Positions 33,847 through 59,493 of a stretch of 60,437 bases of DNA are shown here, piece by piece (the stretch's first letter is position 1; each line of letters begins with the position of its first letter). The notes under the pieces are model-generated. The model saw only the letters and a program-made list of their open reading frames with translations. It was not told where the DNA came from and did no database searches. This DNA comes from an uncultured Clostridia bacterium (GTDB lineage: Bacteria; Bacillota; Clostridia; Lachnospirales; CAG-274), in assembly GCA_947631975.1 (NCBI GenBank), contig CANRNM010000001.1:1-60437 (forward strand), read 5' to 3'. A program made the position numbers and the translations under genes.

Positions 33847-33860
33847 TTCATTAAAACGCC

Positions 33861-33958: not shown

Positions 33959-34339
33959 TTAATAATAACCTTCTGCGCCGAAAAGTATACTTTCAACATT
34001 ATTGTTGGGTGCGTAAATACCCACAGATGATTTTACGCTGATGTAGCTGTCATCTTTCTTTTCCAAATCCTTAAACATTTTTTTGGCATTTTCAATATTG
34101 GAAGGAAATACAAGAATATTGTCGACAACTACCTCTGCATCAAATATTTCTATTGCTTCGCATTTGTCATTTTCATCATAGAATACATGGCAGAAGCCAA
34201 AATCATCAGTTGTGTTTACGCTGTACTTTGACTTTTTAAACTCCTTTGCTTCGCCGAGTATCTGTCTTACTTCGGCTCTGTTCATTCCAAATTTTACGCC
34301 GTTGACTTCTTTTAATGGTATTGCTGTTATCTTATACAT
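33959..34339 (-). CDS. Putative immunity protein for the upstream toxin
   Basis: 126 aa, small and acidic. Its start overlaps the toxin stop (ATGTATAA) and GGAGGG lies upstream, the usual arrangement for toxin-immunity pairs. No family was recognised. Confidence 0.5.
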   Translation of the reverse strand: MYKITAIPLKEVNGVKFGMNRAEVRQILGEAKEFKKSKYSVNTTDDFGFCHVFYDENDKCEAIEIFDAEVVVDNILVFPSNIENAKKMFKDLEKKDDSYISVKSSVGIYAPNNNVESILFGAEGYY

Positions 34340-35270: not shown

Positions 35271-35272
35271 AA

Positions 35273-38533: not shown

Positions 38534-38557
38534 AACTGTATTCTCCTTGTTTATTGT

Positions 38558-38929
38558 TTATAATCTTAAGAATAATAAAATAATCAGTATGAGCATAAAA
38601 ACAGCTATTATTATCTTATAAATCGAACTGACAATTTTTTTGTTCCTTAATTTATTACATACTAAATATAAATGTTTGATATAATCGGCGCTTATATCTC
38701 CCAGAGCAATTCCGTTTAAAATATGATTTACATATTGCTTGTCCCATTCGTTTTCGGATTTGACCTTAATATTAGAGTCTCTTTGTATTTTGTTTTGTTT
38801 TACCAGAAGATCTAAAAGACCGCAGAGCTCTTCATAGGAAATTTCACCGTTGCTGATGTCGTGGCATAGATCCAATATACCCTCGCTTAAAGTTACATCA
38901 TTAAAATACTTTTTATATAGATCTGTCAT
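38558..38929 (-). CDS. Small tail-anchored membrane protein
   Basis: 123 aa, soluble and helical at the N-terminus, with a single C-terminal hydrophobic helix IYKIIIAVFMLILIILLFL. It lies between the GTPase and ATPase genes. Confidence 0.6.
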   Translation of the reverse strand: MTDLYKKYFNDVTLSEGILDLCHDISNGEISYEELCGLLDLLVKQNKIQRDSNIKVKSENEWDKQYVNHILNGIALGDISADYIKHLYLVCNKLRNKKIVSSIYKIIIAVFMLILIILLFLRL

Positions 38930-38977
38930 AGTGCATTCCTCCTATATAAATATGTGTTGTTAAAAAGATAAAAATAT

Positions 38978-41395
38978 TTATTCAGATACAGAGATCCCCC
39001 ATATTTTGTTATTTAGTTCCTCGGATTTCTTATCAATTTCAGTAAGTATATTTTCATACATTTGAATATCTTTTTGAAGTTTATCTTTATTTTCTGCGTA
39101 TTGTTTTAATTCTCCGGAAAATGTTTTTAAATCTTCTTTAGATTGTTCATGTATTTTGTTCAAAGCATCCAGGTATATATCATTTATATTGTTTTTAAAT
39201 GCAGAAAAATATCTATCCATTAGTTTCCTGTATCCTTTTAAAACATTATTTTTGTATTTTTTTCTGTCTACAAAAATAAACCATTTTCTGACATCTTGCA
39301 AATCAGGATATGATATTTGTTCAGGATATTGTGGATTATAATAAGTAATCAATTTGCCCCAATGATCTTCAGATATGTTAGCTCTAATTATATTATGAAT
39401 TTTATTATTTATATTACTTATTTTATCATCAATAATGTCTTTCCTTGTTTCATTATACTTTTCATTAATCTCATCAACATATTTTTCTATTTTCTTTAAT
39501 ATTTTCTCTGAATTTTTTTCATATCCTATTGCTATACGCGGTATTTTTTTGTCTAAAAATTTATCAAATTCTTCTGTCTTTGAGTCAAAAAATAAATGTA
39601 AACCATCTAAATCAATAATATATTTGTCAGAATTGTTTATTTTCTTTTCTTTTTCAAATAATGAGTCTAATTCACCAATTAGTTTATTTTCTACATAATT
39701 GGCCATTCTTTCTATGTTTGACTTATCTTCTGTGCTTATACTTTTTTTACTTTCATACTCGTTTTTAGCCAATTCTATAATTTTATTGGCACTGTCATAA
39801 ATAATATTTGCCTTTACGGAAAGTGCATATTTTACAGCGTAGTTTTTAATTTCATCTTCTAAGGCAAACATACCGGAATTGATAAAAGTTTCCCTATGGA
39901 TATCATTTTCTCTATGGGCACTTTCAGCTTCTTCTTCGCATTTGTTTTTAAGTTTGATGGTCGCATTTTCTGCTTCGGCAAGTTTATTAAATCTATAATA
40001 TTTTCCGCTGCCGTCATTATGCTCATTATTGACAGTCGGATAGAGCCTGTTCTTGTTTCTCTCATCGTTTTGGGTATTTAGTCCCTTTTTCATGATACGG
40101 CTTGTATATGCCGCAAGAGCAGACACAAACAACAGCCTTTCTTTTGAAAGATCTATTGTTGTTTTGTTGCCTGTTGTTGGTTCTTTAAACTCTATTTGTC
40201 TGTTTTTTAGTTCTTTAATATCTTCATCTATGTTATTTATCTCATCTGTCCTGTTTATAACATGGATAGATCTTGAGATATCAATAGAGGTGTTGTTTTC
40301 ATCTTTGTTGTTTTTAAAATTTGTTATAATATTATATAATAAATTATTTCCGGAGCCTTCTGTTTTTGTTGGGTGATAAACTACAACAAGTATGGAATGA
40401 GTTTGCTTTTTCAGAGCGTTTTCAAGTATCTCGGAATGTTCATCCGAATTGCTGTCGGTACCTGGAGTGTCATATATAACAAAATTGTATTTATCATTAC
40501 ATATATCCATAGGGTAAAAAACGGTTACTACATTATCAATGTATTCGTCATTATTTTGGTCAAGTTTATTTGGCATATCATTAATATATTTTAATATATG
40601 ACATACATGCTGATAACGATACTTACTGTGAAAATTATTTGTTGCTTCGGTAATATGGCTGAGTAATTTAGAGTTTTTTAACTGACTTTCAATTATAAAT
40701 TTATTGTTTTTTCCTGACCATATAAGCTTAACACTGTTTTTTGTCAAATCTTTTCTGATATCAAAACATATACGGACTTCTTTTTTTGAATTTATTATTT
40801 TTGTAATCTTGCCTGTTTCAGATATGGTCGATTCCGGCAAAATAGCCTCTCCTATTAAAGTATTTATGAGTGTGGATTTTCCGGAACTATATACTCCAAC
40901 GAAGCATATATTTACATCATTTTCAGAAAACTCACCGATCATTTTATTAAGCCTATTCTTTGTTCTGTCATATTTTGTGCCTTTTTTATTAAGATCGAAG
41001 TCATCAAAATATTTTATGATATCGCCATAAAAATGACGTATGTCTTGATATATATTCTCAACATCAGGCAATTTTATAAAATCTTCTTTAAGATTTATAA
41101 GGTTTTGATGTTTACTGTCGTTATAAAATTTTACCATGTTTTTAAAATCCTCATAGTCTGCCGCAGTTCCTCTATATGTAATATCCATCGGATTTCCGTT
41201 ATTATAATTAATTATTGCTTGAAAAAAATCATTTCCTTCATTTTGAAGCAAAAAATCGCCTGTTTTGTTTATATATTCTTCCAGTTCACCGCTGTACTTT
41301 GAACGTATCTCTTGCCAGTTTTCGTTGTTCTTTTCAGAAAAAATCACCTGTTTTTTTACCGGATGATAGGTAACTAAAATTTCATTGGATGACAT
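38978..41395 (-). CDS. Dynamin-like large GTPase (bacterial dynamin-like protein family)
   Basis: G1 GVYSSGKSTLIN, G3 VIYDTPGTD and G4-like INRTDE, preceded by a ~150-aa N-terminal domain and followed by a ~400-aa K/E/N-rich helical stalk. Confidence 0.7.
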   Translation of the reverse strand: MSSNEILVTYHPVKKQVIFSEKNNENWQEIRSKYSGELEEYINKTGDFLLQNEGNDFFQAIINYNNGNPMDITYRGTAADYEDFKNMVKFYNDSKHQNLINLKEDFIKLPDVENIYQDIRHFYGDIIKYFDDFDLNKKGTKYDRTKNRLNKMIGEFSENDVNICFVGVYSSGKSTLINTLIGEAILPESTISETGKITKIINSKKEVRICFDIRKDLTKNSVKLIWSGKNNKFIIESQLKNSKLLSHITEATNNFHSKYRYQHVCHILKYINDMPNKLDQNNDEYIDNVVTVFYPMDICNDKYNFVIYDTPGTDSNSDEHSEILENALKKQTHSILVVVYHPTKTEGSGNNLLYNIITNFKNNKDENNTSIDISRSIHVINRTDEINNIDEDIKELKNRQIEFKEPTTGNKTTIDLSKERLLFVSALAAYTSRIMKKGLNTQNDERNKNRLYPTVNNEHNDGSGKYYRFNKLAEAENATIKLKNKCEEEAESAHRENDIHRETFINSGMFALEDEIKNYAVKYALSVKANIIYDSANKIIELAKNEYESKKSISTEDKSNIERMANYVENKLIGELDSLFEKEKKINNSDKYIIDLDGLHLFFDSKTEEFDKFLDKKIPRIAIGYEKNSEKILKKIEKYVDEINEKYNETRKDIIDDKISNINNKIHNIIRANISEDHWGKLITYYNPQYPEQISYPDLQDVRKWFIFVDRKKYKNNVLKGYRKLMDRYFSAFKNNINDIYLDALNKIHEQSKEDLKTFSGELKQYAENKDKLQKDIQMYENILTEIDKKSEELNNKIWGISVSE

Positions 41396-41450
41396 AAAGA
41401 TCCCTCCTATATATTGATATAATTAATTATTTGTATCTTCCACATGAAAA

Positions 41451-42401
41451 TTACAATATTTTAACATAATCTCCCTGGCTTTTCAACCACATATCTACAC
41501 CCTTGCCAAATACCTCGGCTCTTATTGTATACACGCCGTTATCCTCCTTTTCTATTATGGCTGTGGGCAGTCTGTCCATAACAGCCTCGACTGAGGGTCC
41601 GCTGAATTCAAAGCGCACGGTCCTGAGCCTTCCGCCATACATAAACTGAACTCTCTTCCTGAACTCGCCCTCCTGAAATCTTTTGGCATAAGGCATGCTG
41701 AAGTGTTCATCGGTTATTCTGTAGTTCAGTATCCTGTCTATGCGGTAAATTGTGGGGTAGGGGTCTTCACTGTTTTCAAAGTGAGTCTTCTTGTCTATGT
41801 CCTCTATATAAGCAGGCATATAGAAATAGAACTCTGAAAACATAACGCCTGCGGGAAGCACTTTTCTTTTTGATACCTTTCCGTCAAGGCGCTTATAGCT
41901 TATCTCAAGCTTTTTCTTTTCATTCAAAGCACGGGTGATATCCCATATTTTCTCAATAAGCTTCTGTTTGTGAGAAAGCTCGGCGTAATAAAATTTTTCA
42001 TTGGCGATAAGCTTCTCTATTGTATTTATATCCGAAGGCGGTACGCAGTTTTGTATTACCTTATCCAGAATTGACGAAAGCTCTTCTTTGGTAAACGCTC
42101 TGCTTTCCAGTAATATCTTGCTAAGAGCATATACCTCACTGCTTGACATCTGCTTGCTGTTCTCGTAATAGAGATAATAGCCGTTTATTTTTCTGTCATA
42201 TATAAGCTCCTGTCTGTTGCCCGTTCTTGTTCCTCTTCCTTCAAAGAACGCCCTGAGGTCCTCAATATCTCTCTGTACGGACCTTTCGTTTATTCCGTAG
42301 CGCTGAGCCTCTGTTCTTTTATTTATGACCTCTCCGTCTGTAAGACGCATGCACATATCCAATATTCTGTTGTGTTTCGCCGAGCTTTCAGCAGTATTCA
42401 T
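41451..42401 (-). CDS. HTH + WYL domain transcriptional regulator
   Basis: An N-terminal DeoR/YafY-like HTH (ILDMCMRL...INERSVQRDIEDLRAFF) and a C-terminal WYL-type half (TIYRIDRILNYRITDEHF..., then VRFEFSGPSVEAVMDR). Confidence 0.75.
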   Translation of the reverse strand: MNTAESSAKHNRILDMCMRLTDGEVINKRTEAQRYGINERSVQRDIEDLRAFFEGRGTRTGNRQELIYDRKINGYYLYYENSKQMSSSEVYALSKILLESRAFTKEELSSILDKVIQNCVPPSDINTIEKLIANEKFYYAELSHKQKLIEKIWDITRALNEKKKLEISYKRLDGKVSKRKVLPAGVMFSEFYFYMPAYIEDIDKKTHFENSEDPYPTIYRIDRILNYRITDEHFSMPYAKRFQEGEFRKRVQFMYGGRLRTVRFEFSGPSVEAVMDRLPTAIIEKEDNGVYTIRAEVFGKGVDMWLKSQGDYVKIL

Positions 42402-45004: not shown

Positions 45005-46597
45005 ATGGAGAAATTAAAAACGGCAATATACTGCCGTATATCACACGACGATGACAACCAACAGTCGGAGAGCATTGACAACCAACAGCTCATAATCAGA
45101 AATTATGTGAACAGTCATAGGGACGAGTTTGAAATTGTTGATACATACATTGACGACGGTATTTCGGGAATGACTTATGACAGAGCTGCCTACTCCCGTA
45201 TGATGGAGGCAATAAACGAGGGCAGAATAAATGCTATAATAGTAAAAGATCTTTCCCGAATAGGAAGAGAACAGATAGAAACACTTAATCTTATAAAAAA
45301 GGAGTTTATATTAAAAAACATACGCTTTATAGCAATAACAGACGATTATGACAGCTTTGACACATCAAAAAGCGATGGGCTGAGTACATCGGTAAAGCTG
45401 CTCCTCAATGACTACTACTGTGCAGATATTTCACGCAAGGTCAGAAGTGCGCAGAATGCTAAAAGGGCAAGAGGGGACTTTATAGGCTCCCATGCGCCCT
45501 ATGGATATATAAAGTCTGATAATAACAAAAACAAGCTGGTTATAGACGAACAGGCAGCCGAGGTGGTGCGCAAAATATTTAGCTTGTATATGCAAGGCTA
45601 CGGCAAGCTGACAATAGCCAGAATGCTCAACGCCTGTGAAGTGCCTAATCCCACTACATATAAGAGAAGGGTGTTGAAGCAAAATTACGTCAATTCCAAC
45701 AAGCTGAACAGCACTACATACTGGACATACTCCACAGTCAGCAAGATATTGACAAATCCCGTATATATAGGCTGTATGGTACAGCATAAGTCGGAAATAA
45801 AGGCTTACAACATACATAAAAAGGTCATTGTGCCGGAAAAGGACTGGTGCATTGTGGAGAATACCCATGAGGCTATTATAAACAGATGTGATTTTGAAGC
45901 TGTGCATAATATGCTCAATACCAGAAGGCAAAATGTTGTGCTTACAGAAAATATGTCCAAGTATACAGGATTGTTTTTCTGTAAGGAATGCGGCAGAGCC
46001 ATGAATAAGTTTCTGAGCAAACCTAAAAAGAACGGTGAACGCTATATTACATTCAAATGCGGCTCATATTCAAGGTTTGGCAAGGATATTTGTACTATAC
46101 ATTCTATACGGGAGAATGACTTGGATGAACTTGTGCTTAACGAGATAAGGCGTAATATAAGCATTGCCCTCGACAGCGAGACCTGTGAATACATAAAGAG
46201 CAAGGGCTTGCACGAAATGAGATCAAAGCAGAATGACAGACTTATAAAGCTGAGAGAAGGCCTTGATAACTGCAAACAGAAAAGAAAGAATATGCTGGAG
46301 CATCTTGCGGAAAATATAATAGATATTGAGGATTTTAAACAATTCGATGCGAACAATAAGGCTGAAATCGAAAGCATAAAAGAAAACATCAAGCTCATAG
46401 AAAAAAGACTTGCAGACGAAAATAAGGAAATGGAAGCGTATAATATCTGGCTCAGAAATATATTGCAGTACAAGGATATTTCCGAGATTACCAGAGAGAT
46501 ACTTGCAAATCTCATAGACAGCATATACATATCCGAAAAGGATGATGTAAAGGAAATAGAAATTAATTTTAAATTCAAAAATCCCCTTGATAAGTAG
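45005..46597 (+). CDS. Large serine recombinase
   Basis: 530 aa. It has a resolvase catalytic domain (AIYCRISHDDD...SIDNQ, VKDLSRIGRE), a recombinase domain, zinc-ribbon cysteines (CKECGRAM...FKCGSY...C) and a long C-terminal coiled coil. GGAGG lies upstream. Confidence 0.9.
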   Translation: MEKLKTAIYCRISHDDDNQQSESIDNQQLIIRNYVNSHRDEFEIVDTYIDDGISGMTYDRAAYSRMMEAINEGRINAIIVKDLSRIGREQIETLNLIKKEFILKNIRFIAITDDYDSFDTSKSDGLSTSVKLLLNDYYCADISRKVRSAQNAKRARGDFIGSHAPYGYIKSDNNKNKLVIDEQAAEVVRKIFSLYMQGYGKLTIARMLNACEVPNPTTYKRRVLKQNYVNSNKLNSTTYWTYSTVSKILTNPVYIGCMVQHKSEIKAYNIHKKVIVPEKDWCIVENTHEAIINRCDFEAVHNMLNTRRQNVVLTENMSKYTGLFFCKECGRAMNKFLSKPKKNGERYITFKCGSYSRFGKDICTIHSIRENDLDELVLNEIRRNISIALDSETCEYIKSKGLHEMRSKQNDRLIKLREGLDNCKQKRKNMLEHLAENIIDIEDFKQFDANNKAEIESIKENIKLIEKRLADENKEMEAYNIWLRNILQYKDISEITREILANLIDSIYISEKDDVKEIEINFKFKNPLDK

Positions 46598-46818
46598 ATG
46601 TCAGGGGGATTTGTGCTATATGGATATACATAAAAAGAGGGTTATATCTGACTGTTCGGCAGGTTATAAATATTTAATTCCTTAATGTATATCATATGAT
46701 GAAAATGCTGTCGATAAATGTGATTTGTTGACTTTCTACTCTGAATATGATACAGTAAATACGATACAAAACAAATGGTATTTATTTAGTATAATTTAAT
46801 TACGAAAGGATATAGTCT

Positions 46819-47940
46819 ATGAATATTTTTGTACTTGGTAATGGTTTTGATATTGCTCATGGTTTGCCTACAACATATATTGATTTTATGAAATTTATAG
46901 ATATGGCAGAGGAAATAATTAGTAAAAGCTATGTGGATGATATGAATTTTACAGATATCTTGAATCCAAGTGCTATAGATGATAAATTAATGGAGCATTT
47001 AAAAGGAGGTGGAATAAATTATTTGTTATCAATAAAAGAAGATTTTATGAATTATTATAATAATAATTTTTGGATAAATTATTTTAAAAATAGATTAAAA
47101 AATACTGAAAACAAATTAGGCGAGACTTGGATAGATTTTGAAAGTATAATATCATATGTTATTAAAGGCTTTGATTACAGTGGAGAGAGGGGCTTTATAT
47201 CATTAAGGGAATATGACCCTGATTTATATAACTTCGTAAATTTAAATATTCCGATAAAAAAAGTTAAATTTAAAGGTGTTAAAGCAATTCTTATCAAGGA
47301 TTTAGAAAATTTAATTAATTTGTTGGAAATTTATTTACATGATTTTATTGGTGAACTTAAAGTGGAAGTTATTTCTCCTGATATTAAGGAATTACAAATC
47401 GGAGGCGTATTGTCATTTAACTACACTGAAACATACAAAAAATTATATGACAGTAGGAATGATATAGAATATAGCTACATTCATGGTAAAGTCAGAGAAA
47501 ACAGTTTAACCGATAATAACATGGTTTTAGGAATAGATGAATATTTGAATGATGCTGAAAGAAATATCAATATTGATTATATGGAGTTCAAAAAATATTT
47601 TCAAAGAATATATAAAAAAACAGGTTCATCATATAAAGATTGGTTAGAACCAGTGGTGATGGATGGGAATTGTTATATGTATTTTTGGGGACATTCTTTA
47701 GATATTACAGATAAAGACATTATACGAGAATTAATTTTAAATAAATGGCATAAAAAAATAATATTTTATCATAACAAAGAAACCCTAAAAAAACTAATAG
47801 GAAATTTAATTAAAGTTATTGGACAGGATAACCTTATTAAATTGACGGGAGATCCTGATCCAAATATAGAGTTTAGATTGCAAAAAGCAATGGAAAAAAA
47901 CACTAAACATACAAGTTCGTGTTCTTCTGTTTGTTCCTGA
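46819..47940 (+). CDS. AbiH-family abortive-infection protein
   Basis: The N-terminus MNIFVLGNGFDIAHGLPTTYIDF matches the characteristic GNGFDlahGl.T.Y.dF start of the AbiH family. Length is 373 aa. Confidence 0.65.
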   Translation: MNIFVLGNGFDIAHGLPTTYIDFMKFIDMAEEIISKSYVDDMNFTDILNPSAIDDKLMEHLKGGGINYLLSIKEDFMNYYNNNFWINYFKNRLKNTENKLGETWIDFESIISYVIKGFDYSGERGFISLREYDPDLYNFVNLNIPIKKVKFKGVKAILIKDLENLINLLEIYLHDFIGELKVEVISPDIKELQIGGVLSFNYTETYKKLYDSRNDIEYSYIHGKVRENSLTDNNMVLGIDEYLNDAERNINIDYMEFKKYFQRIYKKTGSSYKDWLEPVVMDGNCYMYFWGHSLDITDKDIIRELILNKWHKKIIFYHNKETLKKLIGNLIKVIGQDNLIKLTGDPDPNIEFRLQKAMEKNTKHTSSCSSVCS

Positions 47941-47982
47941 TAATATGAATAATAAAATTTATATGTCTACAAAAAAAATTAA

Positions 47983-48028
47983 AATCAGGATTATTTGGTA
48001 TATTTAAGCCGAATAATCCTGATTTATA
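47983..48028 (+). terminator. Intrinsic terminator after the AbiH gene
   Basis: A 13-bp stem AATCAGGATTATT / AATAATCCTGATT with a 16-nt loop, followed by TTATATT. Confidence 0.5.
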
Positions 48029-48132
48029 TTGTCTTTCATATAAGTTTTGCCAAATTATAGCAGATAATATTTTCATTTTTTATTGACAATACATCGGCAA
48101 ACCGATATAATAATATTATGGAGGTGAAAACT

Positions 48133-48717
48133 ATGTATCTGAATGATTTGATATACGAAAGAGGAATTACAAAATACAGATTATCAAAAGAAAGCGGAGT
48201 TCCCCAAACCACCATTATTGACATATGTAGTGAAAAATCCAAAATTAAAAATTGCGCTGCCGGTACTCTTTATAAAATAGCAAAAGCCTTAAATATATCA
48301 ATGGAAAGTCTTATAGCCAAAGAAGTCAATAAAAACGATATTCCTCACAGAAGTTCCTTTGAGGTTTTTAAAAGTAATGTTTGTCATCTTGTAAAAGACA
48401 AGGGCGATGTTGAATTTATTATAGATACGCTTTCTTCCGACGAAATAAGGACGCTGTATAACAGAAGGTGGTATGCAGAGGCATTTTATATGCTTGCCAT
48501 GATAGATTATCTTTCAAGAGAAAACAGTATTCCTATTTGCACTAATTACAATGACATTCGCTCTCAAAAACTAAAGGATATGATATATCCATCAAGCGCT
48601 GTGATCTCTGACGCGGCAATGAATACAACAAAACATTGCGAAGAATGTCTTAAAAATGCTATACCAGAATTTTTGAGATTTAATATAGTGGAAGGTGAGA
48701 TAAGAAATGTCTGCTGA
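48133..48717 (+). CDS. XRE-family HTH protein with an uncharacterised C-terminal domain (antitoxin-like)
   Basis: The ATG at 48133 has GGAGGTG 6 nt upstream. The N-terminal HTH reads ITKYRLSKESGVPQTTIIDICSEKSKIKNCAAGTLYKIAKALNISMESL. Its stop overlaps a truncated downstream ORF. Confidence 0.6.
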   Translation: MYLNDLIYERGITKYRLSKESGVPQTTIIDICSEKSKIKNCAAGTLYKIAKALNISMESLIAKEVNKNDIPHRSSFEVFKSNVCHLVKDKGDVEFIIDTLSSDEIRTLYNRRWYAEAFYMLAMIDYLSRENSIPICTNYNDIRSQKLKDMIYPSSAVISDAAMNTTKHCEECLKNAIPEFLRFNIVEGEIRNVC

Positions 48718-48761
48718 TACGATATTTACGAAAGACGATCTGAATATGTGTCTAAGAAAGC

Positions 48762-48989
48762 TTGCAGAGAAATTTTGCTAGCGCAATGGGACAACTAATA
48801 GATAAAATGCCTACCCTAAAATCGGGAGAATGCTTATTAATAGGGGATGCAGTTATTATCCTATCTATAGTTAAAATCGAAGAGTGTAATCCTAAACCAT
48901 CTTCCAATGATATTCCATATTTAGAGCTTTGGGAAAAAGAATGGTATGATCTTGATATTCAAGCAATAGTGGATAATTGGAGACAATAG
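48762..48989 (+). pseudogene. C-terminal remnant of a HerA/DUF87-type ATPase gene
   Basis: MPTLKSGECLLIGDAVIILSIVKIEECNPKPSSNDIPYLELW resembles the extreme C-terminus of HerA-like defence ATPases (L..GEali.G.av..P..v.i......P.S.D). No P-loop part is present upstream. Confidence 0.45.
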
Positions 48990-49012
48990 TAATAGCAAAA
49001 AGGAGTGTTAAT

Positions 49013-49765
49013 TTGGATATTGAAAGAACAAAACAAATAAAGTATCTTTTGTTAAGGTGTAAATCGTTAAAAGAAAACATGATTAGGACGCTTAAAGATA
49101 GCTCCACAAACGAAATAGGAAGATACTCTTCTTTTAGAACGTACGCTGAGGAACATGGTTTTTTAGCTTGTGAAGTCTGCAAGGCTTTAGAATTAAACAA
49201 CGAAAGAATTCTATATTATGATACAAGGAAAATGAAAGGATGGGCTGATACAGTTTGGGCTCAGCAAAAAGAAATTATTGATAGTTTGGTTGTATACACA
49301 GATACATTGATTGCTCTTTTAGAAAAGGAAATTGATTTTATAGACGATGAGTATACTAATTTGGAAAACTTCATAAAGAACAAATTAAGAAGCACCATCT
49401 TTACTATTCCAGAAAAAGAGAAAGAAGTACAAAATGCTATTGAAACTCTATTTGTTGGTAAAGGCTGGAATAAAGGAATAGATTATGATAGAGAAACTGG
49501 TAAGTTCGAGTTTTCAGGCAAGGAGTATATTCCTGATTTTATAGTACCTAAATTAAACTTATGTATTGAAGTGAAGCTATTGAAAGAAGGAAGAAAATCA
49601 AAAATTATTGAAGAAATCAATGCCGATATAACAGCTTATGATAAAGAATATAAGCGTCAGCTTTTCGTTGTATATGATCTTGGTGGTATACGAGATGAAA
49701 TTGAATTCAAACGAGATATAGAAAATGCTAAAGATGATATCAAAGTAATAATAGTAAAACATTAA
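49013..49765 (+). CDS. PD-(D/E)xK-like nuclease-fold protein
   Basis: The C-terminal part has YIPDFIVPKLNLCIEVKLLKEG (a D...E.K arrangement) and FVVYDLGG. The TTG start at 49013 has AAGGAG 7 nt upstream; the tracked start is 48977. Confidence 0.4.
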   Translation: MDIERTKQIKYLLLRCKSLKENMIRTLKDSSTNEIGRYSSFRTYAEEHGFLACEVCKALELNNERILYYDTRKMKGWADTVWAQQKEIIDSLVVYTDTLIALLEKEIDFIDDEYTNLENFIKNKLRSTIFTIPEKEKEVQNAIETLFVGKGWNKGIDYDRETGKFEFSGKEYIPDFIVPKLNLCIEVKLLKEGRKSKIIEEINADITAYDKEYKRQLFVVYDLGGIRDEIEFKRDIENAKDDIKVIIVKH

Positions 49766-50426: not shown

Positions 50427-50687
50427 TCATCGTATCTCTACTGAATAAGCCTGTTTAAAATTATTCCTTCTCATATTACCCGCTCCCCATTCTGCGTCAA
50501 AGCTTATAGCCACCTGTGGTTTTCCCTGTGTGTCCACGCAGTATATTGGCAGTTTTTTCTTAGCGGCGGACGTTTCTATGCTTTGAGTATCTCTTATAGT
50601 CTTTATCCCGCCGACAGTAAAAGCAAAAACCGTAATAATAACTAAAGCCAATAACGTGGGCTTTTTTCTTTTAAGGAAATTTTTCAT
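50427..50687 (-). pseudogene. 5' fragment of a polysaccharide deacetylase gene, copy 1, reading into an element arm
   Basis: MKNFLKRKKPTLLALVIITVFAFTVGG...PQVAISFDAEWGA is followed by out-of-gene sequence. It differs from copy 2 at 15 of 75 residues. Confidence 0.75.
50467..50489. repeat. Inner right junction: terminal arm CTTCTCATATTACCCGCTCC plus core CCGCTCCCCA
   Basis: It is identical over 23 nt to 54780-54802. The arm is the inverted partner of 33824-33843. Confidence 0.75.
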
Positions 50688-50923
50688 TAAAACACCTCCT
50701 TATAAAGGATATGACTTTAGCAGAAAATTTATAAATTTTTGTTCTGTTATATTTGAGATGTAAGCCGGAGAATAATATCGCTGAATCGTTTGTATATGCA
50801 CAAAATAAGTTGTTTATTTTAGCCAAGTCAAATGTAAAAATTGAATTATATATGGAAATATGCTATGATTTGTTTAAAACAATAAAAGTCGGATATGCTT
50901 TGACATTTTTACAGAGGTATTTT

Positions 50924-53773
50924 ATGGTGAATGAAATTGAAAAGCTTAAAGCAGAAATAACGAAATTAAAAAACGAAATTGAACGGCTGCGCAAAATACT
51001 TGACAATGCCGGTATTGAATATGATATTAAAAACGACAATAAAATATCAAGTGAAGTTATAACAAAAGAGCATATTTTTCTTTTTTATTCCTATTTCAAG
51101 GGAAGGAAGGATGTTTACAGCAGGCGAACGGTACGAAAAGACGGTAAAGCGGCTTATTACCCCGTATGCGATAATTTTTGGAAATACGGGATATGTCCCA
51201 GATGTGAGCAGAGGAAAACGAAATGTTCAGAGTGTGAACACAGGAAATGGACTCCGCTGACGCAAAGTGCAATATATGGTCATCTTATGGGGCGAAAGGC
51301 AAATTGCAGCGATGTGATAGGCATATATCCTATGCTTGAAGGAGATAAATGTAATTTCCTTGTTTTTGATTTTGATGATCACAGCGATGTAGATACAGGG
51401 ACAGAATGGGCAGAAGAAGTAAATACAATGAGAAAAATATGCGAAGATAACGACGTAGATATTCTTGTGGAAAGATCACGGTCGAGCAAGGGTGCGCATA
51501 TATGGATGTTTTTCGAAGAGCCCATAAGTGCGGCAAAGGCAAGAAAATTTGGTACTGCATTACTGACAAAAGGCGCAGAAACCGTAAATATGAAAAGCTT
51601 TACATATTACGATCGTATGATACCTGCTCAGGATCATCTGACCGAGGGCGGACTGGGAAATCTTATTGCTCTGCCTTTACAGGGACAGGCTCTTAAGAAA
51701 GGCAACAGCGCCTTTGTAGATGAAAACTGGGAGGTTTATGAGGATCAATGGGAAATTTTGAAAAATACCAAAAAATTATCATTAGATTTTGTGGAAGAAA
51801 AAATTTCTCTATGGAGTGAAAAAGCTGTATCGGATAATTCAGACGGTAAGCCGTGGGATATTAAAATAGATAAAAGGGATGCCGAGGGCTGTGTTGAAAT
51901 CACTCTTGCCGATAAGATATATATAAACAAAACTAATTTAAAACCAAGACTTCAGAACAGTATAAGAAGGCTTGCTGCTTTTGGCAATCCCGAATTTTAT
52001 AAAAATCAAGCCATGGGCTTTTCCGTGTTCAATTGTCCAAGGATCATATATTGCGGAGAGGATATAGACAATTATATTGCAATACCAAGAGGTTGTTTTG
52101 AAGAAATAAAGGCGTTGTTAAATAAAGCGGATATTGAAATAAAAATAGCAGATGAAAGGAATACAGGAAATAACATAAATGTAAAATTTAAAGGCAAGCT
52201 TTATTCCGAACAGCAAAAAGCGGCAGAAACTATGCTTAAATATGACTGCGGAATTTTAGGCGCGGCGACAGCCTTTGGAAAAACCGTAGTCGGCACATAT
52301 ATAATAGCGCAGAAAAAAGTCAACACGCTTATTTTGGTGCACAACAGGGAAATTATGAACAATTGGACAGAGGACATCAATAATTTCCTCGCAATCAATG
52401 AAAAGCTGCCTGAATATAAGACCAAAACAGGTCGTATAAGAAAAAGAAAGAGCCTTATAGGGAAAATATATGCGGGTCATAATTCTTTGACGGGTATAAT
52501 TGATGTTGCGATGATATCATCTCTGGGGAAACCCGAGGCAATAAGTGATATAGTCAAAAATTATGGTATGGTCATAATGGATGAATGTCATCATGGCGGC
52601 GCGGTAACGGCAGAGGCTGTTTTAAGGGAAGTAAATGCAAAATATGTTTATGGAATGACTGCTACTCCAAAGCGAAATGACGGTCATGAAAAGAGAGTCT
52701 ATATGCAGCTGGGGAATGTCAGATATAAATTTACGGCTCAGGAAAAAGCAGAGCTTCAGAATATTGATCATTATATATATCCGCGTTTTACAAGCCTTGT
52801 CAATATGGGGAAGGAATGGAATATAAATGAAGCCTACAAGGCAGTTATTACAAATGAGATAAGAAACAAAATGATTATTAATGACGCTGCTAAATGTATT
52901 GAGAATAAAAGAACACCATTGATAATCACAAAATTTAGAGAACATGCAGAACTTTTGAAAAATATACTTGAAGGCACAGCCGATAATATTTTTTTGCTGC
53001 AGGGAGGAAGAGGAAATAAGGAAAGAGAAAACATAAGGACAATGCTTCGGAATGTTCCCAAGACTGAAACGCTTATCGTAGTGGCAACAGGGCAATATAT
53101 AGGCGAGGGCTTTAATTTGCCAAGACTCGATACTATGCTTTTGGCAACACCTATAGCATGGTCGGGAAATGTTGAGCAATATGCAGGACGTCTCCACAGA
53201 GACTATGAAGGCAAGAAAGACGTTATCATTTATGACTATATCGACAATCATGTCCGCGTCCTTGAAAGAATGTATTATAAAAGGCTGAAGACCTATAAAA
53301 ATATGGGATATGAAATATATAATAATACATATGCCGAAAAACAAAAAGTCGGTTCTATATTTGACAGTAAAAGTTACGGTGAAATATTTGAAAGAGATAT
53401 TTACGAGTCAAATAAGGAAATAATAATATCAAGTCCGGGCATTAACAGTAAAAAGGTCGATAATTTTTGCAAAATAGTTGCCGAAAAGCAGAAAGACGGT
53501 ATACAAATTTGCGTTTTAACATTGTCCCCTGAAATCTATCCCGAAAAAATAAAGGATATTACAACGAATTTAATAAATAAACTGGAAGAAAAGGGCATAA
53601 GCGTAATATGTAAAGACAGCCTCCATGAGCATTTTGCTGTTATCGACAAAGAGATTGTATGGTATGGCAGCATGAACTTTCTGTCGAGAGAAAAGGAGGA
53701 AGACAATATAATGCGAGTTGTGAATAAGGAGATAGCAGAAGAACTTATGCTTATAACATATAATTGCAAGTGA
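50924..53773 (+). CDS. Fusion protein: archaeo-eukaryotic primase-polymerase (AEP) domain + SF2 (ResIII/DExH) helicase + C-terminal PLD-like domain
   Basis: The ATG at 50924 has AGAGG upstream. AEP domain: GRKDVY, Cys cluster CDNFWKYGICPRC...CSEC, VFDFDDH, SRSSKGAHIWMFF and GNLIALPLQG. Helicase: AATAFGKTVVG, MDECHH, MTATPKR and QYAGRLHR. PLD-like domain: HEHFAVIDKEIVWYGSMN. Confidence 0.75.
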   Translation: MVNEIEKLKAEITKLKNEIERLRKILDNAGIEYDIKNDNKISSEVITKEHIFLFYSYFKGRKDVYSRRTVRKDGKAAYYPVCDNFWKYGICPRCEQRKTKCSECEHRKWTPLTQSAIYGHLMGRKANCSDVIGIYPMLEGDKCNFLVFDFDDHSDVDTGTEWAEEVNTMRKICEDNDVDILVERSRSSKGAHIWMFFEEPISAAKARKFGTALLTKGAETVNMKSFTYYDRMIPAQDHLTEGGLGNLIALPLQGQALKKGNSAFVDENWEVYEDQWEILKNTKKLSLDFVEEKISLWSEKAVSDNSDGKPWDIKIDKRDAEGCVEITLADKIYINKTNLKPRLQNSIRRLAAFGNPEFYKNQAMGFSVFNCPRIIYCGEDIDNYIAIPRGCFEEIKALLNKADIEIKIADERNTGNNINVKFKGKLYSEQQKAAETMLKYDCGILGAATAFGKTVVGTYIIAQKKVNTLILVHNREIMNNWTEDINNFLAINEKLPEYKTKTGRIRKRKSLIGKIYAGHNSLTGIIDVAMISSLGKPEAISDIVKNYGMVIMDECHHGGAVTAEAVLREVNAKYVYGMTATPKRNDGHEKRVYMQLGNVRYKFTAQEKAELQNIDHYIYPRFTSLVNMGKEWNINEAYKAVITNEIRNKMIINDAAKCIENKRTPLIITKFREHAELLKNILEGTADNIFLLQGGRGNKERENIRTMLRNVPKTETLIVVATGQYIGEGFNLPRLDTMLLATPIAWSGNVEQYAGRLHRDYEGKKDVIIYDYIDNHVRVLERMYYKRLKTYKNMGYEIYNNTYAEKQKVGSIFDSKSYGEIFERDIYESNKEIIISSPGINSKKVDNFCKIVAEKQKDGIQICVLTLSPEIYPEKIKDITTNLINKLEEKGISVICKDSLHEHFAVIDKEIVWYGSMNFLSREKEEDNIMRVVNKEIAEELMLITYNCK

Positions 53774-53967
53774 GATAAAATTTATGAAAAAGCAATAGTT
53801 GTTTTAGAAAAAATTTTATCTATTCGTATAATCATATAATGTGAAGGGATAGTACCTGCAAATTGCGGCATTGAGAAACGATAATTTTGTGGTGTAATAA
53901 TTTATTTGAATTTTATGCAGCAGCGTAATATAATTATTTTAAAAAATATGAAAGGGTGTAATTTGAC

Positions 53968-54240
53968 ATGACAAACGAAGCTATATTGAGCAGCGAAAAA
54001 GACTATACAATATTCAGGTTCAATAACCATGTGATTCGTTTTAAATCTCCTTATTCTCTTGAAAAATATACTGAAATAAAAGAATGGGATGCAGGATATA
54101 TTGTAGTCATGGCAAAATATTTACACAACTCCGAAGAAGAGGAAGAGTATATAGATCTAGTGCTGATCCTGAGAAAATTGTATTATGATGTTGAAAGATT
54201 TTTAAAGCCTATAAAGAAGGTGAGGATATCTTATGATTGA
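53968..54240 (+). CDS. Hypothetical 90-aa protein
   Basis: It is an intact ORF with an A/G-rich region upstream (GAAAGGG). No motif was recognised. Confidence 0.35.
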   Translation: MTNEAILSSEKDYTIFRFNNHVIRFKSPYSLEKYTEIKEWDAGYIVVMAKYLHNSEEEEEYIDLVLILRKLYYDVERFLKPIKKVRISYD

Positions 54241-54772
54241 TATAGAAAAAACAGCCGACAATGCCGATATGATAATCAATGGCTATGCATATACTCAAAA
54301 CGGTGACGAAATTCAGGTTTTGAATCTGAATAATCAGTTGTACTTAATAAGACAGGTGAGGTTATGGAAACCAATATGGAAGATATAGAGATTGATATTG
54401 TCAAATCATATTTTGACAATAACCGTGATCTTATGGAGAATTAGTATGCCTAAATATTACGAATACAAAATTGCAGGATATTGTCCTGTATTTTACATCT
54501 CATTGTATTATTGAATGTATGCGTGTTCATGCCAATGACAGGAAGCTTACGGAAGCAGGTTCTGCAAAATTTTTTTGTCAAAGCAAATGATGATACGATA
54601 TTACAAAATCGTGGTATACTCAATGACAGGGAAATTGCTAAAAAACAAGCATTTATAAAGAAAAATTACAAAGAAATGTATCTTAAATGGCTTGAATACA
54701 GTAAAAATGCTTTTTATGAAGATAACTAGATCATATTGAAGTTTTGCTGCAAGATACCAGTTGATATTTAAA

Positions 54773-55000
54773 TCAATTCCTTCTCATATTACCCGCTCCC
54801 CATGCCGCGTCAAAGCTTATAGCCACCTGCGGTTTTCCCTGTGTGTCCACACAGTATATCGGCAGTTTTTTCTTTGCTGCGGAAGTCGCAACGCTTTGAG
54901 TATCCCTTATCGTACTTATCCCACCAACCGTAAGAGCAAATACGGCAATTGCAAAAACAGCCCATAGGGTTTGTTTTTTGCGTTTAAATATTTTGTGCAT
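54773..55000 (-). pseudogene. 5' fragment of the polysaccharide deacetylase gene, copy 2 (outer junction)
   Basis: MHKIFKRKKQTLWAVFAIAVFALTVGG...PQVAISFDAAWGA joins in frame with the 3' fragment at 33822 across the shared core. An RBS (AGGAGG) lies upstream at about 55010. Confidence 0.8.
54780..54802. repeat. Outer right junction: terminal arm plus core CCGCTCCCCA
   Basis: CTTCTCATATTACCCGCTCC (54780-54799) and core (54793-54802). See the left junction at 33813-33843. Confidence 0.75.
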
Positions 55001-55119
55001 TAAAACACCTCCTTATAAAGAATATGTTTTTGTTGGGGTGTTTATAAATTTTTATTTGATAATACGGTATAAAACAGCAGATAAACATAGGCTTGATGAC
55101 AGGCGAGCGGTACGACACT

Positions 55120-56809: not shown

Positions 56810-57105
56810 ATTCAATATTATATTTATAAAATGTGTAAGCACTTGAATAAGGTGTTTTTTTGTTTTAACACTGCATTTAACACGCCTTTAACGCGCGCGT
56901 GTTAAAAATATATTTATTAAAAAGGAGAACAAACCATGAAGAAATTTACACAGGTAAAAAAGATTATCAACGGCACTTTTTGATAAGCCGCTGACTGAAA
57001 AAAATAAGCCTTGAGGAATTTTTTATCACAATTTTATTGAAAAATTTTGCATTGCAGTTTATAATTAAAATAATAGACATATTAAAAGAGACTGAGGATA
57101 TTTTT

Positions 57106-58080
57106 ATGTACAGGCCACCATTTGAAATCACAAACAAGATAATTGCGGACATTGCCGAAATTGCAGAAATGACAGGGAAGATGACTGAGACATCACAACT
57201 TGGCAGAGACCTAATGCTGCGCAGAAAAAACCGTATCAGTACGGTTTACAGCTCACTGGCTATAGAAAATAATGTTCTTACACCGGAACAGGTAACGGTA
57301 GTGCTTAACGGAAAGCACATTATTGCGCCACCCAAGGACATTATGGAAGTAAAAAATGCTTATGAAATATATGAGCATATGGATACTCTTGACCCTTATT
57401 CCATTGATGCCCTTTTGAAGGCTCACGCGGTAATGATGCGGGGTTTAAATGATGAAACAGGCAATTTCAGAACAAGACCTGTGGGTGTGGTTGACAGCAA
57501 AACAGGCGAAATAATACATTTTGGCACATTGCCCAAATATATTTATACGGCTGTTACCGACCTTCTGAACTGGGCAAAAACTACGGATGTTCATATGCTC
57601 GTCAAAAGTAGCGTTTTTCATTATGAATTTGAACTTATACATCCTTTTGCCGACGGAAACGGACGAATGGGAAGATTATGGCACACTCTTATGCTGTCGA
57701 AATGGAATCCGCTGTTTGCATGGCTGCCCATAGAATCTATGATCCATAACAGACAAGCAGAATATTACGGCGTAATTAACAACTGTAACCATGCAGGTAG
57801 CTCTACGGAATTTATTGTTTTTATGCTCGATGTCATTAAAAATGTGCTAAATGAAAATGCAATGTCGGAAAAAGCGTCGGAAATAATGTCGGAATTGGAA
57901 AAGAGCAGACTTGATGTTATCAATAAATTTTTGTCCGAAAATAACAGCATTACATCAAAAGAAGCTGTCAGACTTCTTGACACAAGCGAGCGAACAGCCC
58001 AAAGACTTCTGAAAAAGGCAAAAGAAATGGGACTTGTTAAGAGTAAAGGTTCTACAAAAAATAAGTGTTATTATATTTAG
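57106..58080 (+). CDS. Fic/DOC family protein with a C-terminal winged-helix-like domain
   Basis: It carries the canonical Fic motif HPFADGNGRMGR. The start at 57106 (MYRPPFEIT) is preferred over the tracked 57037. The C-terminal ~60 aa look like a wHTH (ITSKEAVRLLDTSERTAQRLLKKAKEMGLV). Confidence 0.85.
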   Translation: MYRPPFEITNKIIADIAEIAEMTGKMTETSQLGRDLMLRRKNRISTVYSSLAIENNVLTPEQVTVVLNGKHIIAPPKDIMEVKNAYEIYEHMDTLDPYSIDALLKAHAVMMRGLNDETGNFRTRPVGVVDSKTGEIIHFGTLPKYIYTAVTDLLNWAKTTDVHMLVKSSVFHYEFELIHPFADGNGRMGRLWHTLMLSKWNPLFAWLPIESMIHNRQAEYYGVINNCNHAGSSTEFIVFMLDVIKNVLNENAMSEKASEIMSELEKSRLDVINKFLSENNSITSKEAVRLLDTSERTAQRLLKKAKEMGLVKSKGSTKNKCYYI

Positions 58081-58197: not shown

Positions 58198-59493
58198 TCA
58201 GTTTTTTAGTGCAGTTATTGGCACTACAAATACCCCGTCGGGTCTTATATATGCCGCATTTGACATTCCGCATATCACGCATAGAACAGACGGTGCAATA
58301 CCACCGTTTTTAAGGATATTATTTTTCAATTCTATAAGAGATTCAGCGGCTTTGTCTATCTGATTTGCGCCAAGCTTTATCTCAAATGCACACCACCTGC
58401 CGTCAGAAAGCTCAATGACTGCATCAATCTCCTTGTTGTTATAGTCCTGATAGTGAAAAAGATTAGCCCCAAATGACTCGGCATAAACCTTCAAGTCACG
58501 CTCTACCAATGCTTCAAACATGAATCCAAAGGTATTCAAATCTCCGATAAGTCTGTCGGGTGTTGCCTTTAACAATGCACAGGCAAGCGAAGGATCACAA
58601 AAATGCCTCTTTTCAGCTTGTTTTACTCTGACAGATGAACGAATATTGGTTGAAAACGGCGGTTGGTTGTCTATTAGGAACAGTCGGTTGAAAACGTCAA
58701 GATAGGTAGTTATTGTATCGTCATCAATAGTTTCATCATCGTTTTCTTTAATGTCGTTGAGCAGTTTTTTCTTTGTTGCGGTAGTACTTTCATTCCGAGC
58801 AAGAGAACGCAGTAGAAGACGCATTTTATTTGTGTCGTATTTTTTATTGTCAATGCGCTGCGAATCATCATCAAGAATAGCGTCAAGATAAGACTGCAGC
58901 AACAGGAATGCGTCTTCCGGAGCAGCATTCAGATTTCCGGGGAAGCCACCGCGTACTGTATAATATGCAAGGTCACGCAGATCTACTTCTCCTGTAAGTA
59001 CACTTTTTAGCTTCCCATTGCATAAATCCTCAAGAGATACTTCTCCGCTTGATTCTCCCGATTCATAAAGCGACATAGTACGCATACGCAGCTTTTCTAC
59101 ACGACCTGCACCGCTGTGGAGAATGCCTTTTCGCTTCGGTGTGGATGAACCAGTCAGAATAAACTGACCTTTATCCGCTCTTTGGTCAACTGTGTAACGA
59201 ACAGCATCCCAGATAGCAGGGACTTCCTGCCATTCGTCAAGCAGACGAGGTGTTTCTCCTTCTAATACCAGAGATGGCGACATTTCTGCAAGGGAACGGT
59301 TCTGAAAATTATTTGATGGATCGCCTATAAGAAACTCGCTATTGCTGTGAAATGAGGAAGTCCACGTTTTACCACACCATTTAGGTCCCTCAATACATAC
59401 GGCGCCAAAAGCGGAAAGATATTTTTTTACCGTAGCGTCTATAACACGGGGCTTATATTTTGATTTATCAGCTATTTTCTTCAAAATAAACAC
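58198..59493 (-). CDS. AAA_14-type ATPase with a DUF4143-like C-terminal domain
   Basis: Walker A GPKWCGKTW, LLDEWQEVP (the DE.Q motif of this family) and ILTGSS. The C-terminal region has a nuclease-fold-like EIDAVIE...FEIK pattern. Confidence 0.7.
   Translation of the reverse strand: MFILKKIADKSKYKPRVIDATVKKYLSAFGAVCIEGPKWCGKTWTSSFHSNSEFLIGDPSNNFQNRSLAEMSPSLVLEGETPRLLDEWQEVPAIWDAVRYTVDQRADKGQFILTGSSTPKRKGILHSGAGRVEKLRMRTMSLYESGESSGEVSLEDLCNGKLKSVLTGEVDLRDLAYYTVRGGFPGNLNAAPEDAFLLLQSYLDAILDDDSQRIDNKKYDTNKMRLLLRSLARNESTTATKKKLLNDIKENDDETIDDDTITTYLDVFNRLFLIDNQPPFSTNIRSSVRVKQAEKRHFCDPSLACALLKATPDRLIGDLNTFGFMFEALVERDLKVYAESFGANLFHYQDYNNKEIDAVIELSDGRWCAFEIKLGANQIDKAAESLIELKNNILKNGGIAPSVLCVICGMSNAAYIRPDGVFVVPITALKN

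Follow-up and report, generated by a model that had tools for sequence, protein, structure and literature searches.

A single gene in a 60,437-nucleotide (nt) stretch of DNA from an uncultured Clostridia bacterium (contig CANRNM010000001.1 of assembly GCA_947631975.1; the whole stretch is hereafter called the window) encodes a 949-amino-acid (aa) protein in which an archaeo-eukaryotic primase (AEP) type primase-polymerase, an XPB-like helicase of superfamily 2 (SF2) and a fold of the phospholipase D (PLD) type are fused. Its coding sequence (CDS) lies at 50924..53773 on the + strand, stop codon included, as supported by the list of open reading frames (ORFs), the alignment of homologues, Pfam and an AlphaFold2 model. 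The protein is an additional member of a known, computationally predicted and widespread family of AEP-TOTE/CAPP type. New here are the homology of its primase to the CAPP Prim-Pols, the XPB-like nature of its motor, the modular and decaying C-terminal tail, and the structure of the insertion site that holds the gene. We read the protein, with moderate confidence, as a stand-alone DNA-targeting immunity (conflict) enzyme whose gene forms a one-gene cassette within a defence island. A replicase of a mobile element is the main rival; roles in DNA repair and in CRISPR adaptation are less likely.

Domain organization of the 949-aa protein

The program-made ORF list gives one long + strand frame at 50753-53773, which from its first TTG would encode 1006 aa. 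Homologues (MDVDREIDKLK...) align from the ATG at 50924, and AGAGG stands 8 nt 5' of this codon; hence we take the product to be 949 aa long. A sequence-only reading of this DNA had proposed a single 949-aa primase-polymerase/SF2 helicase/PLD-like fusion, and the ORF as well as the profiles for all three domains bear this out: searches with AEP, ResIII/Helicase_C and PLDc profiles all scored above cut-off, and each motif quoted in that reading was found in the protein at the expected residues. In the NCBIfam profile search of the 949-aa protein no model exceeded its cut-off. The AlphaFold2 monomer model (mean pLDDT 85.5, pTM 0.70, built on 68 homologues) orders the chain as an N-terminal helix, the AEP domain, a disordered hinge (aa 300-310), an alpha/beta linker (aa 311-420), two RecA-like lobes, a second hinge (aa 802-809) and the PLD fold. 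Conservation is given below for up to 45 diverse full-length relatives that are 36-72% identical to the 949-aa protein, and for a closer alignment of 68 sequences from a Firmicutes clade. All features within the CDS are on the + strand.

The AEP domain (aa 49-291; 51068..51796) is of the CAPP/AEP-TOTE type. It matches the Pfam family PF22548 (AEP-TOTE) at 3e-85 (285.9 bits vs a cut-off of 27), covering 228/230 profile positions. The best PADLOC profile, Cas-associated PrimPol, falls on the same domain (8e-75), and the NCBIfam model PrimPol_Msp reaches 90 bits vs a cut-off of 200. Among solved structures, phmmer returned only the Marinitoga CAPP Prim-Pol (7nqd/7nqf, 1.9e-11), to which the DxD, the motif II histidine (GxHIW) and the GGLGNLI..PL stretch align; the Foldseek comparison with the CAPP structure gives a TM score of 0.82 on the target at 24% identity. 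The hallmarks named in the sequence-only reading are all located in this domain. Motif I, VFDFDDH (aa 147-153; 51362..51382), carries the catalytic residues D149 and D151, both kept in 44/44 relatives. Motifs II (SRSxxGxH192xW) and III (YD230R..PxQD237..GGxGNLIALPLQ) lie at 51476..51682, the former reading SRSSKGAHIWMFF at aa 185-197 and the latter including GNLIALPLQG at aa 245-254; H192 is present in 43/44 relatives, and D230, Q236 and D237 are present in 45/45. As judged from these alignments, the domain is homologous to the biochemically characterised CAPP Prim-Pol, and an activity of its own is predicted. CAPP Prim-Pol is a DNA-dependent DNA primase-polymerase that is inactivated by the double exchange D177A+D179A (DxD to AxA), and primase as well as polymerase activity was shown for the homologues MpCAPP and DbCAPP (PMC8211822). 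Within the AEP domain, four cysteines, C82, C91, C101 and C104 (C-x8-C-x9-C-x2-C; 51167..51235), are kept in 38-39 of 42 relatives and are invariant in the 68-sequence alignment, and they form a probable zinc site. The cysteine cluster CPRC...CSEC of the sequence-only reading therefore stands as a conserved four-cysteine set, with the reservation that the second cysteine of CPRC, C94, is not conserved among the 42 relatives.

Between primase and motor, the linker domain (aa 311-420; 51854..52183) is modelled as a mixed alpha/beta fold with a pLDDT of mostly 80-96. It has no Pfam match, and aa 301-429 folded alone from the single sequence gave an unusable model (pLDDT 40). The sequence match to XPB starts at aa 420, against residue 64 of the chain, and our guess is that the linker corresponds to the N-terminal damage-recognition domain of XPB. 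The following helicase/translocase core (aa 425-795; 52196..53308) matches ResIII at 3e-18 (aa 425-584), with a DEAD match too, and Helicase_C at 2.5e-5 (24.9 bits vs a cut-off of 23.5). The full DExH motif set described in the sequence-only reading is present and strictly kept: motif I, AFGKT (aa 450-454; 52271-52285), with GKT in 45/45 relatives; motif II, DECHH (aa 553-557; 52580-52594), in 45/45; motif III, TATP (aa 579-582), which together with a RED-like motif reads TATPKRNDG (52658-52684), with TAT in 45/45; and motif VI, QYAGRLHR (aa 752-759; 53177-53200), with QxxGRxxR in 45/45. The residues R584, D586 and G587 of the R-N/D-D-G stretch after motif III are invariant in the clade alignment, and we take this R-N-D-G to resemble the RED motif of XPB. 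Sequence matches in the PDB are to archaeal XPB (XPBII, 4e-11), UvsW and Rad25, and the top Foldseek matches are T4 UvsW and XPB/TFIIH (XPB/Ssl2) with E values of 1e-18 to 1e-20. By these sequence and structure comparisons the motor belongs to the XPB/Rad25-UvsW-like group of SF2. It is not an XPB orthologue, because the NCBIfam XPB model NF045503 scores only 47.6 bits vs a cut-off of 610; RadD scores 28.2 vs 720. Matches in a viral structure library fall on the helicase part, and none of them demonstrably shares the whole primase-helicase-PLD architecture.

The C-terminal PLD-fold domain (aa 812-946; 53357..53761) is recognised by PLDc_2 (3.7e-9, 36.9 bits vs a cut-off of 27, aa 825-941) and, partially and at the domain level, by the PADLOC profiles MkoC (8e-10) and DrmC (3.7e-5). 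It holds a single HKD-type motif, HEHFAVIDKEIVWYGSMN (aa 901-918; 53624-53677), of the form H901-x-H903-(x)4-D908-(x)6-G-S-x-N918. Thus, the exact HKD spacing with histidine in place of the lysine, as noted in the sequence-only reading, is found at H903, and the signature HxK(x)4D(x)6GSxN is incomplete in that it fails at the lysine. In the 68-sequence clade, position 901 is H in 59, Y in 8 and S in 1, position 903 is H in 64 and R in 4, and D908, G915 and N918 are present in 68/68. Orthologues from Desulfobacterota have a canonical HxK (IHQKFALID...YGSINLL), indicating that the ancestral tail was an ordinary HKD nuclease. Other lineages show erosion to CxH, HxR, HxT with loss of GSxN (on a B. 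cereus plasmid) or SxC (in an IMG/VR lineage). In further relatives the PLD is replaced by a Vsr/DUF559-like module ('IEIDGAQH') or a PD-(D/E)xK module ('IEVKG'), and about one third of the relatives end right after the helicase with no C-terminal module. Given such variability of the C-terminal module (HxK, HxH, eroded, two PD-(D/E)xK types, or absence), what the family conserves is the primase plus the helicase. Judged by this comparison of relatives, the tail is interchangeable and dispensable, in the manner of an effector that often decays. Nuclease activity of the present tail is doubtful, since the lysine is exchanged for histidine in the Firmicutes clade and the nucleophile histidine is lost in some relatives; the HxH tail may be catalytically changed or inactive, with dimerisation or DNA binding as its possible main task. 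A second candidate for dimerisation is the long N-terminal helix (aa 2-28; 50927..51007), which is modelled as one continuous helix and has weak matches to coiled-coil Pfam families. As far as the model goes, it probably is a coiled coil through which the 949-aa protein would dimerise.

Distribution and genomic context of relatives

The protein family is large. The full-length protein matches at least 7,942 clusters at 90% identity with E <= 1e-10 (7,942 of 8,000 scored candidates), and almost all of the best 120 matches listed share the architecture; the AEP domain alone has 5,415 representatives at 50% identity. Relatives are found in Firmicutes, Desulfobacterota, Proteobacteria, Acidobacteriota, Synergistota and others, and are named 'TOTE conflict system archaeo-eukaryotic primase domain-containing protein' by NCBI. 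In one Deltaproteobacteria metagenome-assembled genome (MAG) we observed three divergent family copies or fragments (L017, L056, L061), so paralogous diversification occurs.

The gene had been described as standing alone, and this is what the relatives show. All-against-all ORF clustering across 64 genome loci found no conserved neighbour gene. For relatives with about 71% DNA identity, the similarity to the window is confined to the CDS, and their surroundings are unrelated. Of 147 proteins encoded in the flanks, Fic (8), HATPase_c_4 (5) and ResIII (5) were the most frequent Pfam families, along with HepT/MNT, AbiEii, BsuBI/PstI, RhuM and AAA_14. PADLOC identified SoFic (5), pAgo with Aga partners, MADS components, type II methyltransferases and several PDC candidates among the neighbours. 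None of the 25 neighbour families seen most often around the 64 relatives is a TPR, OB, TBP or cas family, and the commonest likewise include no repair gene family.

Orthologues are not consistently embedded in plasmid or phage replication modules, the finding that would have contradicted the sequence-only reading. No full-length homologue was found in 50,697 phage genomes, and the neighbours in genomes are defence and toxin-antitoxin genes. Relatives occur in 79 plasmid records, and at the three plasmid loci inspected the gene lies in accessory regions among insertion sequence (IS) elements, Tn3, TniQ and toxin-antitoxin genes and not beside rep genes. Relatives are also found on 29 IMG/VR contigs. 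Together with one locus from an earlier scan these make 30 IMG/VR loci, 18 of which have an integrase or recombinase nearby (within about 8 kb) vs 6 of the 64 genome loci (within 10 kb). At one of them (L083), a tightly packed co-directional cluster that includes an excisionase-like regulator has the gene as its last member; two tyrosine integrase genes, encoded on the opposite strand, follow immediately downstream.

On plasmid pMl1 of Sinorhizobium meliloti (L070, 7751-11388), a TniQ-family gene lies directly upstream of a tail-less primase-helicase relative, and 56 Sinorhizobium plasmid records match the protein. Some relatives may thus be mobilised together with transposition modules of the Tn7/Tn5053 kind.

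Insertion site and cassette structure

The sequence-only reading had placed the gene between duplicated junctions, and a pair of 265-nt direct repeats indeed flanks it, at 50454-50718 and 54767-55031 (82% identical, period 4313 nt). The left copy (50454..50718) comprises a 25-nt motif (50462-50486), codons 1 to ~75 of a minus-strand polysaccharide-deacetylase gene, its ribosome-binding site and ~25 nt upstream; the right copy (54767..55031) carries the 25-nt motif at 54775-54799. The deacetylase gene is interrupted, with its 3' portion (…WGAEDTDTLLDIL…) at 33220-33830, and its first ~75 codons are found in two diverged copies at 50427-50687 and 54773-55000. The 25-nt motif, AATTSCTTCTYATATTACCYGCTCC, is present at each break, in inverted orientation at 33824-33848 (- strand) and in direct orientation at 50462-50486 and 54775-54799 (+ strand); matches of this kind are not expected by chance. 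The split deacetylase has the appearance of a hotspot for site-specific insertion, where islands stand in tandem or have recombined, and successive integrations, capture of a donor junction or recombination between islands at one site are possible origins of the second junction.

Within this composite defence island, the primase-helicase gene fills the 4.05 kb between the two right-end copies, outside the element that is bounded by the inner inverted ends, and so is the main cargo of a 4-kb cassette, as had been proposed. Two independent gut metagenomes, one of which is labelled rabbit gut, contain contigs (one short contig per run) in which 50689 is joined to 55002 and 50708 to 55022. These contigs hold one repeat copy and lack exactly one repeat period (4312-4313 nt), the cassette included, which suggests that an allele of the locus without the primase-helicase cassette may exist. 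This cassette-like placement suggests that the gene moves on its own.

Contigs in two metagenome runs also join 55057 to 46507 through 24 extra bases (TGGCATATATGATATATAAGATAT), which links DNA lying upstream of the outer deacetylase fragment with the 3' terminus of the serine-recombinase gene. This joint may represent an alternative arrangement or a circular or excised form of part of the island.

A possible role in immunity and its alternatives

We favour, with moderate confidence, a role of the protein as a stand-alone immune enzyme against foreign DNA on account of its intact catalytic centres under selection, the absence of a partner, the effector-like tail, the inheritance as a bare CDS and the defence-rich neighbourhoods, both in the window and around relatives. 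The lack of full-length homologues in phage genomes, the few recombinases near the genome loci, the missing iteron array and the precedent of DRT7 (see below) speak for this role as well. In such a scenario, a dimer would form via the N-terminal coiled coil and the single-HKD PLD-fold tail. The XPB/UvsW-type motor would then use ATP to bind, open or remodel foreign or replicating duplex DNA, and the zinc-bearing, CAPP-like Prim-Pol would prime and extend DNA on the exposed strand. Such unscheduled synthesis might derail replication or packaging of the invader, or might make a substrate for cutting, and competent C-terminal nuclease modules, where present, would cut. The domain identities, the intact primase and helicase motifs, the stand-alone inheritance, the exchangeable or dispensable tail and the defence-rich neighbourhoods are shown; the defence role, the dimerisation, the order of events and the trigger are the parts that we infer.

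Several points weigh against an immune function. The functional evidence for it is guilt by association only. Fusions of this type had been called experimentally uncharacterised, and our full-text literature searches indeed found no experimental paper on any member of this architecture; PADLOC holds no system built on it. By analogy, the combination of primase and helicase follows the classical logic of mobile-element replicases, and the 79 plasmid records, the 29 IMG/VR contigs and the placement of non-CRISPR CAPP homologues in mobile genetic elements (MGEs) (PMC8211822) are in line with this. Because a subset of distant relatives resides in integrase-bearing elements, as in the 18 of 30 IMG/VR loci and the cluster beside two integrases described above, the role in defence continues to rest on inference. 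Finally, the nuclease motif is eroded in many lineages (HxH, YxH, CxH, HxR, HxT, SxC), and a mechanism based on cutting can therefore not be general.

In a more tentative variant, the AEP plus XPB-like core would constitute a new, single-protein form of priming-based interference: the motor would open the duplex DNA of the invader, on which the Prim-Pol would then place unscheduled primers or DNA. Cutting would be optional, and the Firmicutes HxH PLD would be a non-catalytic module for dimerisation or DNA clamping, or would use an altered histidine chemistry. We give this variant a fairly low probability.

AEP-helicase fusions are typical replicases of MGEs, pRN1 ORF904 being an example. The protein could accordingly serve to initiate the replication of an integrative mobile element or a satellite, with the motor melting the origin, the Prim-Pol priming and the tail processing ends after excision. 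The occurrence of relatives on plasmids and IMG/VR contigs, their frequent proximity to integrases there, the co-directional cluster with an excisionase-like regulator and the presence of a serine recombinase in the island of the window are all compatible with such a role. However, the motor is XPB/UvsW-like SF2 and not a ring-forming SF3, DnaB or MCM helicase. Neither an integrase nor a regulator nor iterons are present in the 4-kb cassette (around the gene we found only short two-copy matches and no iteron array), which lies outside the inner inverted-end element and, as the metagenome contigs mentioned above suggest, may be missing from some forms of the locus. Furthermore, a recombinase lies within 10 kb at only 6 of the 64 genome loci, the plasmid copies sit among IS, Tn3 and toxin-antitoxin cargo and not beside rep genes, and interchangeable nuclease tails would be left unexplained. 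We therefore consider a replicase unlikely.

Slightly further down in probability we place an accessory enzyme of DNA repair or damage tolerance, in which an XPB-Bax1-like helicase-nuclease would be joined to a translesion or repriming Prim-Pol acting at stalled forks or breaks. XPB and UvsW, the best structural matches, act in nucleotide excision repair and fork remodelling, respectively; archaeal XPB works with the nuclease Bax1 (PDB 6p4o and others), and MGE-borne Prim-Pols can perform translesion synthesis and microhomology-mediated end joining and affect repair (PMC11724360, PMC9751324). A repair function fits poorly with the patchy, horizontally shuffled distribution and the several divergent copies in one MAG, with neighbours that belong to defence and toxin-antitoxin families and include no repair family among the commonest, with NCBIfam XPB and RadD scores far below cut-off, and with a nuclease module that is dispensable. 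A CAPP-like helper of CRISPR adaptation in trans, which would turn invader DNA into double-stranded prespacers for use by a Cas1-Cas2 from another part of the genome, is highly improbable: the AEP is homologous to CAPP, 'CAPP-helicase' is a class-A architecture and the best PADLOC profile is the Cas-associated PrimPol, but the annotated ORFs of the 60-kb window include no cas gene and the window holds no CRISPR array, cas is absent from the commonest neighbour families of relatives, and most homologues of CAPP-helicase architecture are not CRISPR-linked (PMC8211822).

If the protein indeed acts in immunity, the known bacterial attacks on invading DNA would be joined by one in which DNA priming is coupled to an XPB-type motor, and the recruitment of the same Prim-Pol clade by CRISPR adaptation modules would be explained. 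With its series of naturally occurring C-terminal ends (HxK, HxH, dead, swapped, absent), the family offers a direct way to ask whether cutting is needed. The present copy adds little beyond an intact, well-delimited example in a defence island.

Flanking signals and surrounding island

Consensus scans alone predict a promoter/operator region directly upstream of the gene (50841..50928, + strand), with two sigma-70-like elements, TTGAAT-17-TATGAT and TTGACA-17-TATGGT, and a 19-nt direct repeat (50858-50876 and 50893-50911). An inverted-repeat scan found a candidate terminator right after the stop codon (53773..53821, + strand), an AT-rich hairpin with 23-nt arms that are 78% complementary.

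Small ORFs follow downstream (53968-54729), which had been suggested as possible companions of the gene. DUF7724 (53968-54240) is intact, DUF7723 (54233-54388) is shortened to profile positions 1-35 of 71, and a DUF4160-like gene (54446-54729) is broken by two frameshifts, across which alone it can be read; metagenome contigs have 10 extra bases (CCCAACAAGG) after 54334, within DUF7723. ORF clustering of the 64 loci found no counterpart of these ORFs beside any relative. We reject them as partners, given the shortened DUF7723, the frameshifted DUF4160-like gene and the lack of conservation beside relatives.

The left 33 kb of the window are ordinary chromosome with a GC content of 42-48%, including a purL-like gene, type IV pilus genes, Lon, RF3 and an L,D-transpeptidase, and the GC content falls to 25-39% from ~33.9 kb onwards. 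The stretch from the left end to the first right end of the island encodes a HerA-like ATPase, a LeoA/dynamin-like GTPase, a WYL regulator, a large serine recombinase, AbiH, a helix-turn-helix (HTH) protein and a DpnII/MboI-like protein of restriction endonuclease (REase) fold. The first of these belong to a co-directional block on the - strand (34332-42401) encoding a 316-aa protein with no Pfam match, the 1086-aa HerA-like ATPase, which also matches MADS mad8, a 123-aa protein, the 805-aa dynamin/LeoA-like GTPase and WYL; this block may be an uncharacterised defence module. On the + strand (45005-49765), AbiH, the HTH protein, a 75-aa ORF and the 262-aa REase-fold protein come after the large serine recombinase (Resolvase, Recombinase, Zn_ribbon_recom, DUF4368); the REase-fold protein also matches pAgo-associated 'Aga_Helical-REase' profiles. 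The recombinase lies in the middle of the region between the inverted ends and not at an end. A Fic gene (57037-58080, + strand) is located 3.3 kb downstream of the primase-helicase gene and adjoins an AAA_14/DUF4143 ATPase gene (58198-59493, - strand). Fic genes near the present gene and near its relatives may be a coincidence of defence islands or may reflect a looser functional link.

Comparison with known systems

The closest characterised relatives of the primase are the class-A CAPPs (7NQD, 7NQE, 7NQF, 7P9J). 'CAPP-helicase' has been described as one of three class-A architectures (Zabrady et al. 2021, PMC8211822), and Prim-Pol plus helicase is the commonest architecture of the non-CRISPR CAPP homologues, which usually occur on MGEs and transposable elements (PMC8211822). 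The 949-aa protein resembles this third type in its homologous Prim-Pol followed by a helicase. Unlike CAPP, it has no CRISPR or cas genes nearby and has its own N-terminal coiled coil, Cys4 cluster and PLD-fold tail; moreover, the studied Marinitoga CAPPs are fused to TPRs, while no TPR was detected here. A literature search found no biochemical work on the helicase-fused CAPP type.

The name of the family points to the TOTE conflict systems, an acronym of TPR, OB, TBP and Effector (Aravind, Iyer and Burroughs 2022, as summarised in PMC12458937). It is from these systems that the Pfam family matched by the AEP domain takes its name, and AEP is combined with a nuclease-type PLD fold in one polypeptide. 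However, the TPR-CSD(OB) and TBP components were not found around the gene: ORFs within ~15 kb have no TPR or cold-shock/OB match, no CSD motif occurs anywhere in the window, and the window ORFs scanned have no Pfam match to TBP, of which a very divergent member could escape. The TOTE-type annotation of the sequence-only reading thus agrees with the NCBI name and PF22548, and is retained for the domain; for want of TPR-OB and TBP partners, the gene does not represent a canonical TOTE system.

With respect to the motor, XPB-Bax1 and T4 UvsW provide the closest SF2 cores. Common features are the RED-like motif and, for XPB-Bax1, the combination of a motor with a partner of nuclease fold. Here, a PLD nuclease fold is fused in cis and an AEP is added, whereas Bax1 is a separate protein and, to our knowledge, unrelated to PLD. 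A single-HKD PLD coupled to an SF2 motor is also found in Mokosh MkoB/MkoC, DISARM DrmC/DrmD and PbeA/TIGR04095, and the PADLOC profile of the Dnd-associated PbeA partially matches the helicase (4.5e-21). These systems differ in having no primase-polymerase; in the present case the catalytic lysine is a histidine, and no partner genes of these systems (Mokosh, DISARM, Pbe, type IV REase) were found near the gene.

Recruitment of a Prim-Pol for immunity has a precedent in DRT7, a single multi-domain, dimeric protein whose Prim-Pol domain contributes DNA synthesis in abortive-infection immunity (bioRxiv 10.64898/2026.04.18.719102). In contrast to the protein described here, DRT7 has a reverse transcriptase domain and no helicase or nuclease. 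The replicases of MGEs, such as pRN1 ORF904 or the pAgo-associated AgaPP with its PriCT-DUF3987 helicase (PMC11724360), likewise combine an AEP Prim-Pol with a helicase on mobile DNA. Their helicases are of the SF3/D5 type or form other rings, and they have no nuclease tails, while the protein described here couples its Prim-Pol to an XPB/UvsW-like SF2 motor.

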